A stretch of 64,000 nucleotides of DNA from NCBI GenBank assembly GCA_001790525.1, contig MGCU01000023.1:5659-69658 (forward strand), in the 5' to 3' direction. The notes below the pieces were generated by a model. It was not told the DNA's origin and ran no database searches. It saw only the letters and a list, made by a program, of their open reading frames with translations. This DNA is from Candidatus Saccharibacteria bacterium RIFCSPHIGHO2_12_FULL_47_16b. Its GTDB lineage: Bacteria; Patescibacteriota; Saccharimonadia; Saccharimonadales; UBA10212. This document shows positions 1-30,883 of the stretch, in pieces. Each line of letters begins with the position of its first letter. The stretch's first letter is position 1. The translations under genes were made by a program, and so were the position numbers.

Positions 1-121
1 TGGTCGCCTCCTTAATTGGCTCCTTACTGCGGTTATGGGCAATGACTTGATGGTTGTCCTCGGCCAGCTTTTGGGTAATTTGGGTGCCCATTCGACCAAG
101 ACCAGCTATAGCTATCTTCAC
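1..121 (-). CDS. gnd: 6-phosphogluconate dehydrogenase-like NAD-binding protein, N-terminal fragment (continues past window edge)
   Basis: rc of 1-121 translates VKIAIAGLGRMGTQITQKLAEDNHQVIAHNRSKEP (Rossmann GxGxxG, 6PGDH-type N-terminus). GTG start at 119-121 with GGAGG 5 nt upstream. Adjacent to pgl. Confidence 0.5.
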   Translation of the reverse strand, partial: MKIAIAGLGRMGTQITQKLAEDNHQVIAHNRSKEPIKEAT

Positions 122-19735: not shown

Positions 19736-19922
19736 TTTTGTCCTTTCTTAACAGCCATGACAATTAAAAAATCTTTGGCTATTTAAACCAAAGACTGTCT
19801 TAGGCGAAGCTTAATTTACCTCGGTAGCGGATTAAGTTCGGGGTTATCCGGACAGCTACTGTCTTTGGTCTTGCCCGCTATCTTAACATACTCTAGTCTA
19901 GCTAAGCAACTCTTTATTTTTT
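19736..19922 (-). promoter_or_regulatory. rplJ leader with a long-range helix (candidate L10 autoregulatory leader)
   Basis: 187-nt 5' UTR. ACCAAAGACAG...CAGTCTTTGG complementary segments about 90 nt apart, as in L10(L12)4-binding leaders. Confidence 0.35.
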
Positions 19923-26868: not shown

Positions 26869-27930
26869 TTATTTTATCAAACCTAGCAAACTGATGGTTT
26901 TTTCAATAGTTGCTATGGCGTCTAAAATGCTCTCGGCTCGGATGTTTTTGGCACCTGCGGCCTGTTTATGCCCTCCTCCACCTAATTTAGCGGCAATCTG
27001 TGAAACATCAACTCCGCCACTAACTGACCTAAAAGAAGCCGAATATGAAATTGGCTCGCTTAAAAGCTCTGGATAAACTACAAATCCCCAAAAATTGTTA
27101 TCTAGATTTCGAAGATATTGGTTAGTAAAAATATCACAGCCGGCTTTGAGGTCCATATCCGGTTTGACATCCGATTGCCAGTCTTTGGCAAATTGATCGT
27201 CAATAAAGCTGTAGGTATAGCCTTTACCGTTATCGGTTGCATTTTCAAGTAGGTGGGCTAAGACAACCAGCTCATCTTTAGTAAATCGGTTTAATCGAAA
27301 TTCGAGTTGTTCAATGCTGGCTCCGGCCTCAATTAACTGGCTAACGATTCGGAAGGTGTTTTTATAATCCGGATTATCGTATTTAAAGCGGCTGGTGTCT
27401 CTTAAAATCCCAAGCAGGGCCGTCTTGGCATAACCTTCAGGCTTTTGGAAGTCTAACTGCTCGAAGCAAAGTTCATAAATTTGTTGAGCCGTAGACGATT
27501 TGCCTTCGTTGATATAAATGTCGCCCTGGAAAGAACCGTCATCAGGATGATGATCGATAACAGCTACTTTTGACTTCAAATGCTCGTGAATTAACTTAGA
27601 AAGTTCGTCGGTTTTATTTCTAGAGACTCGGGCTAGTGAATTTCCATCGACGATAACAACTAAATCTGGCTTAAAATCGGAAGCGGCTTCAAAGACCGGT
27701 GCAAATTTAATTTCGCTATAACCACCCAAAAAACTTAGATCTTGAGAGGTATTTTCTTCAAGCACCATTTGGATTTGCTTATCCGGAAAATTTGCCTGCA
27801 ACGTCCTACCCATCAACAAGACCGAACAAACCGCATCCGGATCCGGCGATATATGTGAAGTTACCAAAATTCGGTTAGCTGCCTTAACTAAACTTTGAAA
27901 TTGTTGAGTCAAAATGGCCCCTGCCACCAA
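26869..27930 (-). CDS. DHH/DHHA1 phosphoesterase (second NrnA-like paralog)
   Basis: DHH (VIDHHPDD) and GGGGH motifs. Confidence 0.7.
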   Translation of the reverse strand: MVAGAILTQQFQSLVKAANRILVTSHISPDPDAVCSVLLMGRTLQANFPDKQIQMVLEENTSQDLSFLGGYSEIKFAPVFEAASDFKPDLVVIVDGNSLARVSRNKTDELSKLIHEHLKSKVAVIDHHPDDGSFQGDIYINEGKSSTAQQIYELCFEQLDFQKPEGYAKTALLGILRDTSRFKYDNPDYKNTFRIVSQLIEAGASIEQLEFRLNRFTKDELVVLAHLLENATDNGKGYTYSFIDDQFAKDWQSDVKPDMDLKAGCDIFTNQYLRNLDNNFWGFVVYPELLSEPISYSASFRSVSGGVDVSQIAAKLGGGGHKQAAGAKNIRAESILDAIATIEKTISLLGLIK

Positions 27931-28130: not shown

Positions 28131-28169
28131 ACAGATTCTATGGTGCAGCGTAGTTGCCGAAGCTAGGAC
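28115..28169 (-). repeat. Cassette-associated element A (GTTTTAAC...TGGTGCAGCGTAGTTGCCGAAGCTAGGAC)
   Basis: Shares the core TGGTGCAGCGTA plus GTT(C/T)TAAC / GCTAG(G/A)AC termini with elements B and C. Confidence 0.55.
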
Positions 28170-28228
28170 GCTGTTCCTTGTTTAACTTTGGTAATTCCTC
28201 TGTCCCCGCTATTAAGGTGACGTACTTG

Positions 28229-28501
28229 TTATGAACCTGTTCCTTCTGCGGAATAACGCAGTTTGTTTTCTATGTTCCACTTGTTTACCCACGCACCCGA
28301 TTCGAGCATTGCGCTTGTTGCCAAAAGACCCAACACTACGGCTGTGTGATATCGCCCATCAACTGTAATTTCGGCAACACCGACACCCACAAAGGCTGCA
28401 ACCGCCAAACCATGAAATGTATCTTTGGCAAAGCGACACGCCTCGACATAGCTTGAATCACTATTCGTAAGTAAATCTAAACCTCTTCTAATATAGCCCA
28501 T
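28229..28501 (-). CDS. small membrane protein, cassette gene 2
   Basis: 90 aa. Hydrophobic core GLAVAAFVGVGVAEI...VVLGLLATSAML. Preceded by element B. Confidence 0.4.
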   Translation of the reverse strand: MGYIRRGLDLLTNSDSSYVEACRFAKDTFHGLAVAAFVGVGVAEITVDGRYHTAVVLGLLATSAMLESGAWVNKWNIENKLRYSAEGTGS

Positions 28502-28546
28502 AGCTCAATTATAGCAGTCGTAGATTTTCCAAAAAAGTATGGAGTA

Positions 28547-28605
28547 GGTTCTAACGTTCACAATGCTCTAATCTGTGGTGCAGCGTAATAAACGATGCTA
28601 GAACC
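28547..28605 (-). repeat. Cassette-associated element B, 59 nt with 9-bp terminal inverted repeats (GGTTCTAAC ... GCTAGAACC)
   Basis: GGTTCTAACgttcacaatGCTCTAATCTGTGGTGCAGCGTAataaacgatGCTAGAACC. The termini are 8/9 reverse-complementary. Confidence 0.6.
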
Positions 28606-28627
28606 ATTTTAACCCAGCATCAGTCGT

Positions 28628-29260
28628 TTAGTCCGTGTAATAATCTTCGCCATAGACAATATCCGGCCTAATTTTACCTAACGCTACTGTATCGGGCAGA
28701 AGTTTCTCTAATTCATTCAGTGGTTCTTCTGATGGAAGTTCACCAACTAACGGATGAACATATCCTAGCGTAATATCTGGAGTATAGACACCATGAGGAA
28801 CTTCCACGCCAAGTTCTCTGGCAAGATTCTCTAAATACACTGCCCGTTCTGCATCAAGGATACTTTCTTCATCGTCTAGTATAACTCGAATTTTGTACTG
28901 ATTCTGATACCTCTGCCCATGAGGAACCTTAGTGTATTGAACAGCTTCAAGTGGAAATTCTAACCTCTCTTTTGCATTAACGGCCGGTGGGTTCATAACG
29001 CGAGATAGGGCGACTGATGGGGGGAGAAAAAGAAAATCTACATCGTCTAGCTCTGCCAAAATATCTCTCGTTTCATAGTGACTCACAAGCCCAAGAGTAG
29101 GGGCTATCGCTCTCTTACCGATTAATTTGTATTCAGGGTAGTTACTGTTAAATTTTAGGCGTTCGGTCTCTCCTAATACTCCTGCGATCTGCCTTCTCTG
29201 AACACGTAAACTATATATCAATTCACTTTGGTCCGGACTTGAGTGTTGCTCGCTCGTCAT
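28628..29260 (-). CDS. hypothetical protein, cassette gene 3
   Basis: 210-aa ORF. No recognisable motif. Preceded by element C. Confidence 0.45.
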   Translation of the reverse strand: MTSEQHSSPDQSELIYSLRVQRRQIAGVLGETERLKFNSNYPEYKLIGKRAIAPTLGLVSHYETRDILAELDDVDFLFLPPSVALSRVMNPPAVNAKERLEFPLEAVQYTKVPHGQRYQNQYKIRVILDDEESILDAERAVYLENLARELGVEVPHGVYTPDITLGYVHPLVGELPSEEPLNELEKLLPDTVALGKIRPDIVYGEDYYTD

Positions 29261-29273
29261 AGTTATTCTAATA

Positions 29274-29360
29274 GTTCTAACATACCGATTGCTCTAATCT
29301 GTGGTGCAGCGTAGTTGCCGACCTGTCCTCCGAGACCTTGGTGAAGGGGGAAGCTAGGAC
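29274..29360 (-). repeat. Cassette-associated element C (GTTCTAAC...GCTCTAATCTGTGGTGCAGCGTAGTTGCCGAC...GAAGCTAGGAC) with a 29-nt internal insertion
   Basis: Same core and termini as A and B. Contains the TAG stop of the 58-aa ORF. Confidence 0.55.
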
Positions 29361-29530
29361 AATCTTAAATCTGGGTCAGTTGGGCTAATTAACTCGTTAT
29401 GTTCATGGACTCTGATTTCGTAAGCCTTTCTGCCCTCAAGTGCAGTAGAGTACCAACTTGCAGCTTCGGGTTCTCCTGCCTCTATCCAATAGTCACGATT
29501 CGCAGCGGCATTACGCTTCGCGGTTTCCAT
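29354..29530 (-). CDS. possible small ORF (58 aa), cassette gene 4
   Basis: ATG at 29528-30 (METAKRNAAANRDYWIEAGEPEAASWY...) to TAG at 29354-56. The frame is open a further ~50 codons upstream with no ATG. Confidence 0.25.
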   Translation of the reverse strand: METAKRNAAANRDYWIEAGEPEAASWYSTALEGRKAYEIRVHEHNELISPTDPDLRLS

Positions 29531-29713
29531 GACATCTTGAGGAAACGTACCTGAAGCAACGATATTTACGATGTTTGCACTCCCTTGCCGAGCGATGGCA
29601 ATTGGGCTAAGAGGGTCTTCAGCTGGTGGTCTTACTGATTTAAATGCTTCTCTCGTATTTACTCCTAATGAATTACTATTTTATACTTTTACAGTAGAAA
29701 TGCAAATAAAAAA

Positions 29714-29750
29714 GTTCTAACGTCCCGAATGCTCTTATCTTATGATGGTC
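29714..29750 (-). repeat. Partial cassette element D (GTTCTAACGTCCCGAATGCTCTTATCTTATGATGG)
   Basis: Left arm and GCTCT(A/T)ATCT core conserved. The right arm is replaced by the CCCTCGACAAGCTCGGGGTT motif. Confidence 0.4.
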
Positions 29751-29829
29751 CCTCGACAAGCTCGGGGTTATTCGACTCGGCGTAAATGGTTTACTGCGAG
29801 CGAGGCAGGAGTATTTCTGCCGAGTTGAG

Positions 29830-29878
29830 TGGTGCTGGTCTTCGACGTGGCTCAGGCTAAAGGGGAGGGATTCTGACC
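29830..29878 (-). pseudogene. tRNA-Tyr 3'-end fragment (T-arm/acceptor copy interrupted by a 23-nt insert); att-like direct repeat
   Basis: TGGTGCTGG-[23 nt]-GGGGAGGGATTCTGACC compared with the tRNA-Tyr 3' end TGGTGCTGGGGGAGGGATTCGAACC at 30036-30060. 20 of 26 positions are identical. Confidence 0.5.
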
Positions 29879-29984
29879 TTGCCAGCAAATCAAATTTAGA
29901 TTTGCTAAGGCAACCCCGATTTGTCACAGCCCCAAGTCGGGGCTCTGGGCGGGGTATGCCACCGGCATACCCGTTCTCATCCCT

Positions 29985-30035
29985 CCACAAAAACAAGCGA
30001 CTTATTAATGAGCACAAGGCTCATTGCCAAGTCGC
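29985..30035 (-). terminator. Rho-independent terminator immediately after tRNA-Tyr
   Basis: The minus strand reads GCGACUUGGCAAUGAGCcuuguGCUCAUUAAUAAGUCGC followed by UUGUUUUUGU. Confidence 0.55.
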
Positions 30036-30122
30036 TGGTGCTGGGGGAGGGATTCGAACCCCCGAAGGCGTAAAGCCGTTTGATTTACAGTCAAATGCGT
30101 TTGGCCACTTCGCTACCCCAGC
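30036..30122 (-). tRNA. tRNA-Tyr (anticodon GUA), type II long variable arm
   Basis: Acceptor GCTGGGG/CCCCAGC, anticodon loop CTGTAAA, long variable arm, T-loop TTCGAAT, discriminator A, CCA encoded. Confidence 0.75.
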
Positions 30123-30124
30123 GC

Positions 30125-30201
30125 TGGAGCCGACGAGCGGATTCGAACCGCTGACATGCTGTTTACAAAACAGCTGCTCTGGCCAGCTGAGCTACGTCGG
30201 C
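30125..30201 (-). tRNA. tRNA-Thr (anticodon UGU)
   Basis: Acceptor GCCGACG/CGTCGGC, anticodon stem GCTGT/ACAGC with loop TTTGTAA, T-loop TTCGAAT, CCA encoded. 2 nt from tRNA-Tyr. Confidence 0.75.
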
Positions 30202-30232: not shown

Positions 30233-30883
30233 TCAGATTACAACTCGGCGGGGGCGGACTAGTCTTTTGGGTTGGCTGGCCGCCGCTAGGCGGTTTAGTT
30301 TTTTACGTACCCTGGCGGTTTCGTCCTTCATCCCTCGCTCTTCATAGGCGTTTAACAGCAGGTTGTAACTTTCGGCGGTCGGTTCTATTCTAGCCGCAAC
30401 TTCTAGTTCATGCATCATATGTTTATCATTACCTAGCTTTTCCTGAACTTTGGCATAAGCAATATGCCGAGCCGCCAAATTATCTTCGAGTCTTAAGGCT
30501 TGCTCAAAAGCGGTAGCGGCCTTAGGGTAATTTTCCGTCTCGTAGTAAATCAGTCCTAGATTGTGCAAACTTGAGGCGCTTGGCTCGATAGAGCTAGCTA
30601 TCTCAAAACAATCAATGGCGTCGCGGTATTCGCGTTGCTTGGCGTAAAGGATGCCGAGCCGGTTGTAGGCGGCAGCATTTTTTTCATCTATTTTTAAGAT
30701 TGTCAGCAAGGCTTTTTCAGCCCGCAATAGGCGATTTTCACGCATACCATAATGGGCAATTTCCCATAATTTGCTTAATCGATTACCGATGAAGCGTGGC
30801 ACTTCCGTTAAGGTGGTTATCGATTTGGCGCCGTGATAATAAACAAGATAGGCAAAAATCAAAAATAAAAGGACTGAATACAT
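30233..30883 (-). CDS. TPR-repeat protein with N-terminal membrane anchor
   Basis: N-terminal hydrophobic helix followed by several 34-aa TPR-like repeats (AAYNRLGILYAKQREYRDAIDCFEIA...). Confidence 0.6.
   Translation of the reverse strand: MYSVLLFLIFAYLVYYHGAKSITTLTEVPRFIGNRLSKLWEIAHYGMRENRLLRAEKALLTILKIDEKNAAAYNRLGILYAKQREYRDAIDCFEIASSIEPSASSLHNLGLIYYETENYPKAATAFEQALRLEDNLAARHIAYAKVQEKLGNDKHMMHELEVAARIEPTAESYNLLLNAYEERGMKDETARVRKKLNRLAAASQPKRLVRPRRVVI

Follow-up and report, generated by a model that had tools for sequence, protein, structure and literature searches.

A candidate counterpart of RtT-type tRNA-trailer RNA modules behind tRNA-Tyr in a Saccharibacteria genome

What does a second copy of a tRNA 3′ end signify when it lies a short way behind the intact gene? 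The question is raised by a 64-kb stretch of a Candidatus Saccharibacteria genome (candidate phyla radiation, CPR), here called the window, with all coordinates given as positions within it. In this stretch the tRNA-Tyr(GUA) gene is followed, on the same strand, by a feature that consists of a terminator-like hairpin and a module ending in a split copy of the tRNA's own 3′ end (Table 1). The initial annotation took the repeat for an attL/attR signature and saw in the segment either the remnant of a decayed or excised element or, as the alternative, a hairpin-rich non-coding RNA. Our analysis favours that alternative, an RNA that we infer from a conserved fold, compensatory base pairs and a design like that of RtT RNA in E. 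coli. We lean towards regarding the feature as the Saccharibacteria counterpart of RtT-type tRNA-trailer RNA modules, and assign it no cellular role; an RtT-like design is present here in a phylum where it had not been noted. The comparison set comprised 80 related loci recovered via the neighbouring TPR protein, all from Saccharibacteria metagenome-assembled genomes (MAGs); loci compared with the window carry the labels L001–L080, L101, L106, L107 and L110–L113.

The copy of the tRNA end is well defined. On the + strand, 29830–29838 (TGGTGCTGG) repeats the final 9 nt of tRNA-Tyr exactly (30036–30044; 9/9), and 29862–29878 (GGGGAGGGATTCTGACC) matches 30044–60 of the tRNA at 15 of 17 positions; overall, 24 of 26 positions of the tail copy agree with the tRNA-Tyr end, split by 23 nt. 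A 17-mer pattern allowing up to two mismatches occurs at two sites only in the 64 kb, the tRNA and the copy, against 0.03 expected by chance, and the full 25-mer with up to three mismatches has no further copy within the window. The similarity is thus above chance, and the proposal that 29830–29878 duplicates the tRNA-Tyr 3′ end around a 23-nt insert is borne out, the more so as L107 carries the same element with a tail that runs unbroken to CCA over 25 nt, with two T-loop substitutions (GGTCAGAATCCCTCCCCCAGCACCA, given also as GGUCAGAAUCCCUCCCCCAGCACCA). Because the L107 tail is uninterrupted, the 23 nt are best understood as a later, lineage-specific insertion in the window. The two T-loop differences (UUCGAAU to UCAGAAU) are common to the window, L027 and L107, and their presence in all three members of this group (family A) marks them as a family character, not random decay. 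The tail of L027 lacks the acceptor/CCA part and that of L058 is mutated; the T-loop/T-stem part of the tail is kept despite acceptor damage because it forms one strand of the closing helix, P1.

The segment between tRNA and copy is strongly structured. For the 211-nt stretch the folding energy is −84.6 kcal/mol (z = −4.6), a value that none of 200 shuffles equals. Its core of about 155 nt (29830–29986, minus strand) forms a four-way junction of helices P1–P4, in which P1 is closed by pairing of an antisense T-arm segment (29979–29986) with the tail (29864–29871); the segment, GGAGGGAU, is antisense to tRNA positions 77–70. The annotation's four stem-loops are real as hairpins, with one revision: AGCCCC/GGGGCT is better drawn as a 10–11 bp helix at 29913–29943, because three compensatory pairs support the longer form. 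A two-tier hairpin precedes the module; L027 and L107 carry an equivalent hairpin of different sequence, and a simple terminator scan did not list the one at 29997–30035.

Comparison across lineages points to the fold as the conserved property. Between the window and L027, all 37 pairs remain paired (100%), with ten double changes, one A-U to G-U change and none broken; a control in which partners were slid by 1–3 columns gave 0 double changes and 37–50% pairing. When L107, located through a closer TPR homologue (81% identity), is added, 40 predicted pairs are kept in the three sequences, ten of them compensatory. The junction strands are conserved in all three (CGCCCAGA, the loop GGGCUGUGA and UCAGA) while the stems vary. 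Compensatory pairs are also found in two further families introduced below (11 of 37 in family B, 7 of 30 in family C). Four-fold degenerate sites of the adjacent TPR gene are 20–41% identical, that is, saturated, as against 67–77% for the scaffolds in the same genome pairs. With neutral sites saturated, a non-functional scar would be unrecognisable at such distance; the element is either constrained in place or recently spread as an active entity. Judged from these alignments, the intervening segment is under selection for structure.

These observations bear directly on the possibility that the segment is a neutral scar, the decaying and now functionless leftover of a tandem tRNA-Tyr duplication or an excised island. 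The state of the tails would suit such a history, since that of the window is interrupted, that of L027 truncated and that of L058 mutated, as would a possible second, more degenerate unit at 29746–29829. Yet the scaffold is 70–77% identical where neutral sites are saturated, every stem substitution between the window and L027 keeps pairing, and three lineages retain the fold. The neutral-scar explanation is strongly disfavoured, and of those discussed here we give it the least credence.

The window module is not alone. A search behind every tRNA of the related loci for a repeat of that tRNA's 3′-terminal 13 nt found modules after tRNA-Tyr in 10 of 61 loci. Seven of these (L011, L020, L045, L054, L060, L062 and L079) have copies classed as exact or near-exact that end 148–191 nt past the tRNA, their tail copies being listed as exact, and three (window, L027 and L058) have degenerate copies. 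Behind tRNA-Thr(UGU), copies ending 74–179 nt past the tRNA occur in 5 of 59 loci (L018, L032, L055, L061 and L079). There were essentially no downstream tail copies behind tRNA-Thr(GGU) or tRNA-Trp in the related loci, and, as a control, 0 of 73 tRNAs in unrelated viral tRNA arrays had one. Identity with the tRNA ends at CCA in nearly all cases, the exception being L055, a plain tandem duplication of tail and trailer. By sequence, the elements fall into family A (window, L027 and L107), family B (L011, L058 and L054), family C (L079-Tyr and L018-Thr), family D (L079-Thr and L032-Thr, a short form) and family E (L045-Tyr and L113-Thr, 67% identical, z about 9). A metagenome scan for further family A members returned only sequences identical to the window and L027.

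Mapping 14 elements onto their own tRNAs in both orientations revealed a common plan of antisense T-arm, scaffold of 56–90 nt and sense tail. The full order is a terminator-like hairpin, an antisense T-loop/T-stem segment, in most cases a sense copy, the scaffold hairpins, and finally the sense tail, which spans the T-loop, the T-stem 3′ strand, the acceptor 3′ strand and CCA. In most families the sense copy covers the 3′ side of the variable arm, the T-stem 5′ strand and the start of the T-loop; the sense T-stem 5′ copy is found in L011, L054, L060, L079, L018 and L061, and is absent from the window and L027. Each element can be described, from its sequence layout, as a tRNA 3′ half that appears to be split in the T-loop by a structured insert and placed behind an antisense 'splint'. 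Of 10 elements whose two strands were compared by folding, 8 gave the better fold on the sense (tRNA) strand, as did families B and C.

This plan is also that of RtT. The E. coli tyrT locus has 178-bp repeats that end in the tRNA-Tyr 3′ end; the repeats that we fetched from this locus are RF00391 RtT units (133–137 bits), and we mapped one unit on tyrV with the same script as used for the Saccharibacteria elements (Table 1). In the Rfam RF00391 consensus structure, the antisense arm and the tail form a closing helix and CCACCACCA stays unpaired. The RtT consensus motif that follows the closing helix is GGAUGAGAA; the window has GGAGGGAUGAGAAC at this point, and the motif is found in L107 and L079 as well.

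A different account of the same segment starts from its first hairpin and U tract, which resemble an intrinsic terminator: the whole might be a compound transcription terminator or insulator whose hairpins do no more than halt or pause read-through from a strongly transcribed tRNA operon, the tRNA-end copy having arisen incidentally when slippage or unequal crossing-over took place at the T-arm palindrome. In its favour, a second terminator-like hairpin lies past the tail in L062, L060 and L054, the L055 copy is a plain tandem duplication of tail and trailer, and element-free relatives start the DHH-family gene 3–14 nt past the tRNA, so that an insertion there must re-organise transcription. 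A terminator, however, has no need for a four-way junction with a conserved long-range closing helix, for conserved single-stranded junctions (CGCCCAGA, GGGCUGUGA and UCAGA), or for an antisense T-arm segment and a tail that tracks its tRNA. We consider this account improbable.

How the modules are distributed raises the question of whether they move. Presence and absence vary at this site, as the initial annotation had proposed to check: the closest relative (L001/L101) lacks the segment, its DHH gene beginning 14 nt past the tRNA CCA, and many other loci likewise have tRNA-Tyr followed directly by DHH, so that empty and occupied sites are both found among relatives. A conserved structured RNA at this locus in all relatives had been named as an outcome that would speak against a duplicated-end origin; the segment is indeed conserved and structured, in a minority of relatives only. 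Two scaffold families, C and E, sit behind both tRNA-Tyr and tRNA-Thr, with the tail switched to the tRNA type. Three positions distinguish the tRNAs of L011 and L054, and at these each of the two family B tails agrees with its own tRNA; the L113 tail has three differences from the adjacent tRNA-Thr and fits the tRNA-Thr of another species; the tail therefore usually, not universally, tracks its tRNA. Similarity between elements does not follow that between hosts (L011 and L058 share 68% identity in the element as against 70% in the TPR protein; for L058 and L054 the values are 50% and 79%), which implies some horizontal movement or repeated loss.

Such behaviour is what one would expect if the segment were a mini non-autonomous integrative element or an attP-only remnant, inserted as a circle of about 170–215 bp into the T-loop/3′ end of tRNA-Tyr by a site-specific recombinase encoded elsewhere. 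The element would then supply a new tRNA 3′ end and a terminator, the downstream copy would be the displaced original end (attR), and a series of such insertions would have produced the small-gene array that lies beyond the module. Several observations agree with this: the direct repeat of the tRNA 3′ end, with identity stopping at CCA; the variable presence among close relatives and the discordance between element and host similarity; the occurrence of one scaffold behind both Thr and Tyr tRNAs; the L113 tail that matches another species' tRNA-Thr and not the adjacent one; the separation of the array's open reading frames (ORFs) by GCUGCACCA repeats and a trailer with two direct TTAGAnC boxes; the absence of the trailer from the last junction, which a layout of attL, attP-like junctions and attR would predict; and the many MAG contigs that break at the locus. 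Against these stand the housekeeping neighbours and a scan for tyrosine- and serine-recombinase motifs that found none in the 64-kb window or in the 80 related loci (about 0.8 Mb). Viral contigs were scanned with four patterns (the tRNA-Tyr end, two scaffold motifs and the junction motif) and yielded nothing or unrelated phage tRNA arrays only. The repeat length is variable (13–25 nt), and in most elements the scaffold separates the sense T-stem 5′ copy from the tail, an arrangement that a single T-loop crossover does not yield. Strict compensatory evolution and the long-range P1 indicate a folded single strand, and E. coli RtT, of the same design, is known as a processed RNA. We regard integration as an unlikely explanation, though as the chief rival to the one we prefer. 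A phage or plasmid attP as such was rejected, there being no counterpart in viral contigs. The attL/attR signature with a decayed or excised element, as first suggested, likewise gives way to a segment whose structure is selected and whose repeat serves as a P1 strand, with no recombinase or attP found and RtT sharing the design.

Under the RtT-type reading that we prefer, the module would act as an RNA on the tRNA strand. Read-through of a leaky terminator from the tRNA-Thr/tRNA-Tyr transcript would make it, tRNA-processing enzymes would separate it from the tRNA, and it would persist as a structured RNA; in intact members, the tRNA-like ...ACCA tail could set and protect the 3′ end, as described for E. 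coli RtT. Our guess at a role is that of a tRNA 3′-end or elbow mimic, which would titrate a tRNA-binding factor. Recombination at a common 11-nt T-loop sequence, GGTTCGAATCC, probably gives rise to modules and carries them from one tRNA gene to another, a step that could account for the switching seen in families C and E. Recombination between tail and tRNA end would remove a module and restore an intact tRNA, and such loss would explain the patchy distribution.

Several findings weigh against this reading. First, the window element and that of L018 have no RF00391 match even at E ≤ 10, and the L079 element, for which RF00391 is the top Rfam match with a full-length alignment, reaches only 16.6 bits (E = 0.45), the gathering score being 45. 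When L079 and L018 were combined in a covariance model, the E. coli RtT units came first in the tyrT locus, weakly (8.1 bits) and in a shifted register. With so weak a match, common descent with RtT is not demonstrated and convergence on one design is possible; the resemblance is architectural. Second, folding shows no preference for the sense strand in family A, the antisense strand doing equally well. Third, a terminator-like hairpin stands ahead of the module, which has no space for a promoter of its own. Fourth, the tail is damaged in the window, L027 and L058 though the scaffold is intact, which means that the CCA tail may not be essential. Finally, selfish mobile DNA would fit the patchy distribution and the discordance of element and host similarity equally well.

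We also considered whether the module belongs to some other described class of RNA. A search of Rfam 15 at gathering and E-value thresholds, which the initial annotation had suggested, returned no family for the window element and no described RNA family for the others, save the weak RtT match of L079; in clan CL00001 there was no match beyond the true tRNAs. Transfer-messenger RNA, including permuted forms, and hidden or intron-containing tRNAs were rejected, since ARAGORN (default and relaxed) and Rfam were negative in ten elements. No consistent 5′ acceptor-stem partner was found for the acceptor 3′ strand of the tail. Group I and group II introns, TnpB/IscB guide RNAs and IS110 bridge RNAs came into question because the layout resembles a scaffold joined to an end that matches a target; size, the absence of any adjacent ORF and the absence of an Rfam match led to their rejection. 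Derivation of the scaffold from other parts of tRNAs was rejected too, only chance-level 8-mers being found.

Four small ORFs follow the module, including ones of 58, 210 and 73 amino acids. They had no Pfam, PHROG, NCBIfam or PADLOC matches, and the 210-amino-acid protein is an ORFan with no homologue but itself among 5.8 billion proteins. The repeats that separate the ORFs consist of a core resembling the tRNA-Tyr end, ..(C/U)ACGCUGCACCA, followed by CAGAUUAGAGCA-N6-ACGUUAGAAC. The core GCUGCACCA and a trailer with two direct TTAGAnC boxes are found in the window (28140–29312, minus strand), L008 (6693–7777) and L005 (7450–8103), and the trailer directly follows the true tRNA-Tyr CCA in L005, L008 and L050, with a longer form in L007, L049 and L059. 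To judge from this arrangement, the array looks like the product of serial insertion or duplication at the tRNA-Tyr end, and the 84 nt between the module and the first trailer motif (29746–29829) may be an older, more degenerate tail unit. The layout as a whole resembles attL, attP-like junctions and attR, or an integron-like cassette array. The first cassette (the 58-amino-acid ORF and its upstream part; 29429–29740) is 67% identical to L008 6788–7130, the second unit of an inverted array, and is the sole cassette shared among the 80 loci.

Junction repeat 4 departs from the others in form. It can be written GCAGCGU-CCUAGCUUCGGCAACU-ACGCUGC-ACCA, with a 7-bp stem that is the tRNA-Tyr acceptor stem with one base pair flipped and a UUCG loop, and it ends 10 nt ahead of the AUG of the 73-amino-acid ORF. 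The same hairpin occurs at L005 7452–7498 and L008 6695–6741, in the latter as a compensatory variant (GCAU/AUGC). Junction repeat 3 lies inside an imperfect hairpin, GGUUCUAGC..GUUAGAACC (z = −3.1).

These hairpins invite the thought that module and repeats alike are tRNA-like processing marks, a form of punctuation at which RNase P and 3′-end enzymes would cut, here and at the later ...GCACCA repeats, to give each of the small ORFs a separate mRNA with a short leader. Junction repeat 4, with a 6–7 bp stem followed by ACCA 10 nt before an AUG, has the spacing of tRNA-Tyr and DHH in relatives, and the compensatory variant of its stem in L008 is in keeping with this role. The module, however, is followed by no gene in L011, L054, L058 and L107, where it faces the end of a convergent TPR gene; its tail is split in the window; and junction repeats 2 and 3 are not significantly structured or are distant from the next start codon. 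As an explanation of the module, punctuation seems to us quite improbable, barely more credible than a neutral scar.

Integron attC arrays offer a partial parallel, for the ORF array only. Here as there, each small ORFan gene stands singly and has an imperfect palindrome behind it, and the outer boxes GGTTCTAGC ... GTTAGAACC recall R″/R′ (RYYYAAC ... GTTRRRY). In contrast to attC sites, the boxes are off the exact consensus, only one of the four junctions folds significantly (z = −3.1, with the GGTTCTAGC/GTTAGAACC boxes), and the junctions hold a core like the tRNA-Tyr 3′ end; no integron integrase or attI was found.

The locus as a whole is plastic. The gene order on the minus strand of the window is TPR, tRNA-Thr(UGU), tRNA-Tyr(GUA), the feature, four small ORFs, the DHH-family gene, tRNA-Thr(GGU), rpmG and tRNA-Trp; the neighbouring genes (TPR, holB-like, DHH protein and small ORFans) are housekeeping in character apart from the ORFans. 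No strain-level polymorphism was seen in three other contigs that carry an identical TPR protein, all of them 100% identical. In 22 of 61 loci the tRNA-Thr(UGU)/tRNA-Tyr block, together with what follows it, is flipped with respect to the TPR and DHH genes on either side, and inverted and non-inverted loci are interspersed among close relatives (window +, L107 −), which implies recurrent inversion. The spacer between the two tRNAs ranges from 2 nt in the window to about 560 nt, with long spacers in L017, L037, L045, L061, L071 and L074; tail elements account for some of these only. In insertion-free relatives (L001, L010, L012, L016, L018, L019 and L022) the DHH gene starts 3–14 nt past the tRNA-Tyr CCA, with neither a Shine-Dalgarno sequence nor a terminator at the junction, and the DHH mRNA 5′ end would there come from tRNA 3′ processing, which would leave the message almost leaderless. 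A free-standing HNH endonuclease ORF lies between TPR and tRNA-Thr in L112 (3954–4142) and L113 (2593–2991) and may reflect homing-endonuclease-driven replacement of the tRNA region. Contigs end in or just past tRNA-Thr or tRNA-Tyr in L002, L006, L036, L052, L070, L072, L076–L078, L106, L110 and L111, which suggests strain-level heterogeneity or assembly-breaking repeats. Elsewhere in the window, an ordinary ribosomal protein L10 leader (RF00557, 46.5 bits) lies at 19756–19886, upstream of rplJ as expected.

A bolder proposal, which we put forward as doubtful, would join these strands: RtT-like modules might be widespread from CPR to Proteobacteria as semi-autonomous structured elements, each based on the 3′ half of a tRNA; recombination at the universal T-loop sequence might let them spread and change from one tRNA gene to another; their RNA might imitate a tRNA 3′ end or elbow and titrate a tRNA-binding factor; and at the tRNA-Tyr locus the recombination-prone tRNA-end repeats might also seed the integron-like ORFan array and the recurrent inversions of the tRNA block.

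Table 1. Features of the tRNA-Tyr locus in the window, with the E. coli RtT unit mapped on tyrV for comparison
Feature	Position	Strand	Evidence or remark
TPR gene	30233–30883	minus	
tRNA-Thr(UGU), first gene of tRNA pair	30125–30201	minus	ARAGORN; Rfam tRNA 69.2 bits
tRNA-Tyr(GUA), CCA encoded, source of duplicated 3′ end	30036–30122	minus	ARAGORN; Rfam tRNA 62.9 bits
Feature (hairpin + module) behind tRNA-Tyr, same strand	29830–30035	minus	
Two-tier terminator-like hairpin (29997–30035; GCGACUU..AAGUCGC around AAUGAGC..GCUCAUU), then U-rich tract UUGUUUUUGU	29987–30035	minus	minimum-free-energy structure
Antisense T-arm segment GGAGGGAU (29979–29986), P1 5′ strand, then junction; together GGAGGGAUGAGAAC	29973–29986	minus	
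P2 hairpin, 9 bp, GGU triloop	29952–29972	minus	one compensatory pair
Conserved junction CGCCCAGA ahead of P3	29944–29951	minus	
P3 hairpin, 10–11 bp, conserved loop GGGCUGUGA	29913–29943	minus	three compensatory pairs
P4 hairpin, 12 bp, 2-nt bulge, 7-nt loop	29880–29912	minus	six compensatory pairs
Tail part 1 GGUCAGAAUCCCUCCCC: copy of tRNA-Tyr T-loop, T-stem 3′ strand, acceptor-strand start	29862–29878	minus	
P1 3′ strand AUCCCUCC, within tail part 1	29864–29871	minus	
23-nt lineage-specific insertion splitting the tail	29839–29861	minus	not in the contiguous tail of L107
Tail part 2 CCAGCACCA: exact repeat of the final 9 nt of tRNA-Tyr with CCA	29830–29838	minus	
Possible second, more degenerate short unit; hairpins ACUCGGC/GCCGAGU and GGCAG/CUGCC; ends ..GUCGAAUAACCCC..GGGACCA	29746–29829	minus	read from sequence
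Trailer motif UCAUAAGAUAAGAGCA-N6-ACGUUAGAAC, partial repeat copy	29714–29745	minus	nhmmer E = 1.5e-7
Junction repeat 2: ..CUACGCUGCACCA + CAGAUUAGAGCA-N6-AUGUUAGAAC, between 58-aa and 210-aa ORFs	29265–29312	minus	E = 1e-13
Junction repeat 3: ..UUACGCUGCACCA + CAGAUUAGAGCA-N6-ACGUUAGAAC	28542–28586	minus	E = 3.6e-13
Junction repeat 4: CAGCGU-CCUAGCUUCGGCAACU-ACGCUG-CACCA, minihelix-like hairpin ending ACCA, no trailer	28140–28186	minus	
DHH-family gene	26869–27930	minus	
E. coli RtT antisense GGGGAAGGAT	tRNA positions 77 to 68		
E. coli RtT motif GAUGAGAA	between antisense and sense copy		
E. coli RtT sense copy AAGGTTCGA	tRNA positions 59–67		
E. coli RtT scaffold			about 67 nt
E. coli RtT sense tail AATCCTTCCCCCACCACCA, 19 nt	tRNA positions 67–85		

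Set beside known systems, the module shares features with three. Islands integrated into tRNA genes are flanked by attL/attR repeats, and integrase-less elements of the cis-mobilizable (CIME) type accrete in tandem. Like these, the locus has a direct repeat of the 3′-terminal 13–25 nt of a regenerated tRNA, presence/absence variation, and a variable gene region downstream with repeated att-like junctions. Unlike them, it holds a structured non-coding cargo of about 160 nt with no conserved ORF and no integrase found, and its repeat lies inside a conserved helix, with an antisense T-arm segment and compensatory evolution. The 3′ETS-leuZ RNA of E. coli is a sponge RNA derived from a tRNA 3′ trailer. 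The likeness is that of a non-coding RNA from the 3′ external spacer of a tRNA transcript, freed by tRNA processing; the leuZ trailer, however, is short, pairs with small RNAs, and has neither a copy of the tRNA end nor a four-way junction.

RtT RNA (RF00391) is the nearest parallel. Though known from as long ago as 1991, it is still poorly understood and has been treated as a gammaproteobacterial curiosity. Both modules lie directly 3′ of tRNA-Tyr on the same strand. The E. coli unit finishes with 19 nt copied from its tRNA up to CCA, and the L107 element with 25 nt; in the window the copy is split by 23 nt. In both, an antisense T-arm segment (GGGGAAGGAU in E. coli, GGAGGGAU in the window) closes the structure by pairing with the copied T-loop/T-stem, and after the closing helix GAUGAGAA replaces the exact antisense GAUUCGAA in E. 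coli, the window, L107 and L079. Internal hairpins stand where the T-loop would be, and members are also found beside other tRNAs. The differences are equally plain: the Saccharibacteria scaffolds have another number of hairpins, with no sequence relationship to those of E. coli; the sense repeat of the 5′ strand of the T-stem and the beginning of the T-loop, which in E. coli reads AAGGUUCGA, is missing from the window family; the window module comes after a terminator-like hairpin and is a single unit, not a set of 178-bp tandem repeats; no tpr-like ORF is present at the window module; and the host is a CPR bacterium, not a gammaproteobacterium.

The literature on the family bears on several of these points. 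RtT-family RNAs are released from tRNA operon transcripts during processing (PMC4986893), and a link between them and the stringent response has been drawn (Bosl and Kersten 1991, via PMC4986893); a 2024 preprint describes the mode of action of rttR as still unknown. Members in Pasteurellaceae adjoin Asn and Lys tRNA genes (PMC4986893), which fits the tRNA-Thr examples here.

The comparison is useful in several ways. First, a repeated tRNA end should not always be annotated as an island scar. Second, a design shared with Saccharibacteria gives RtT a structural definition that is independent of sequence. Third, Saccharibacteria add comparative data in the form of several scaffold families, compensatory evolution and switching between Tyr and Thr, and these data point to the constrained parts, namely the closing helix, the junction motifs and GAUGAGAA. 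Finally, the function and origin of RtT become testable across phyla, with an E. coli unit and a Saccharibacteria module that both close a scaffold by pairing an antisense T-arm with a copy of the tRNA's own 3′ end.

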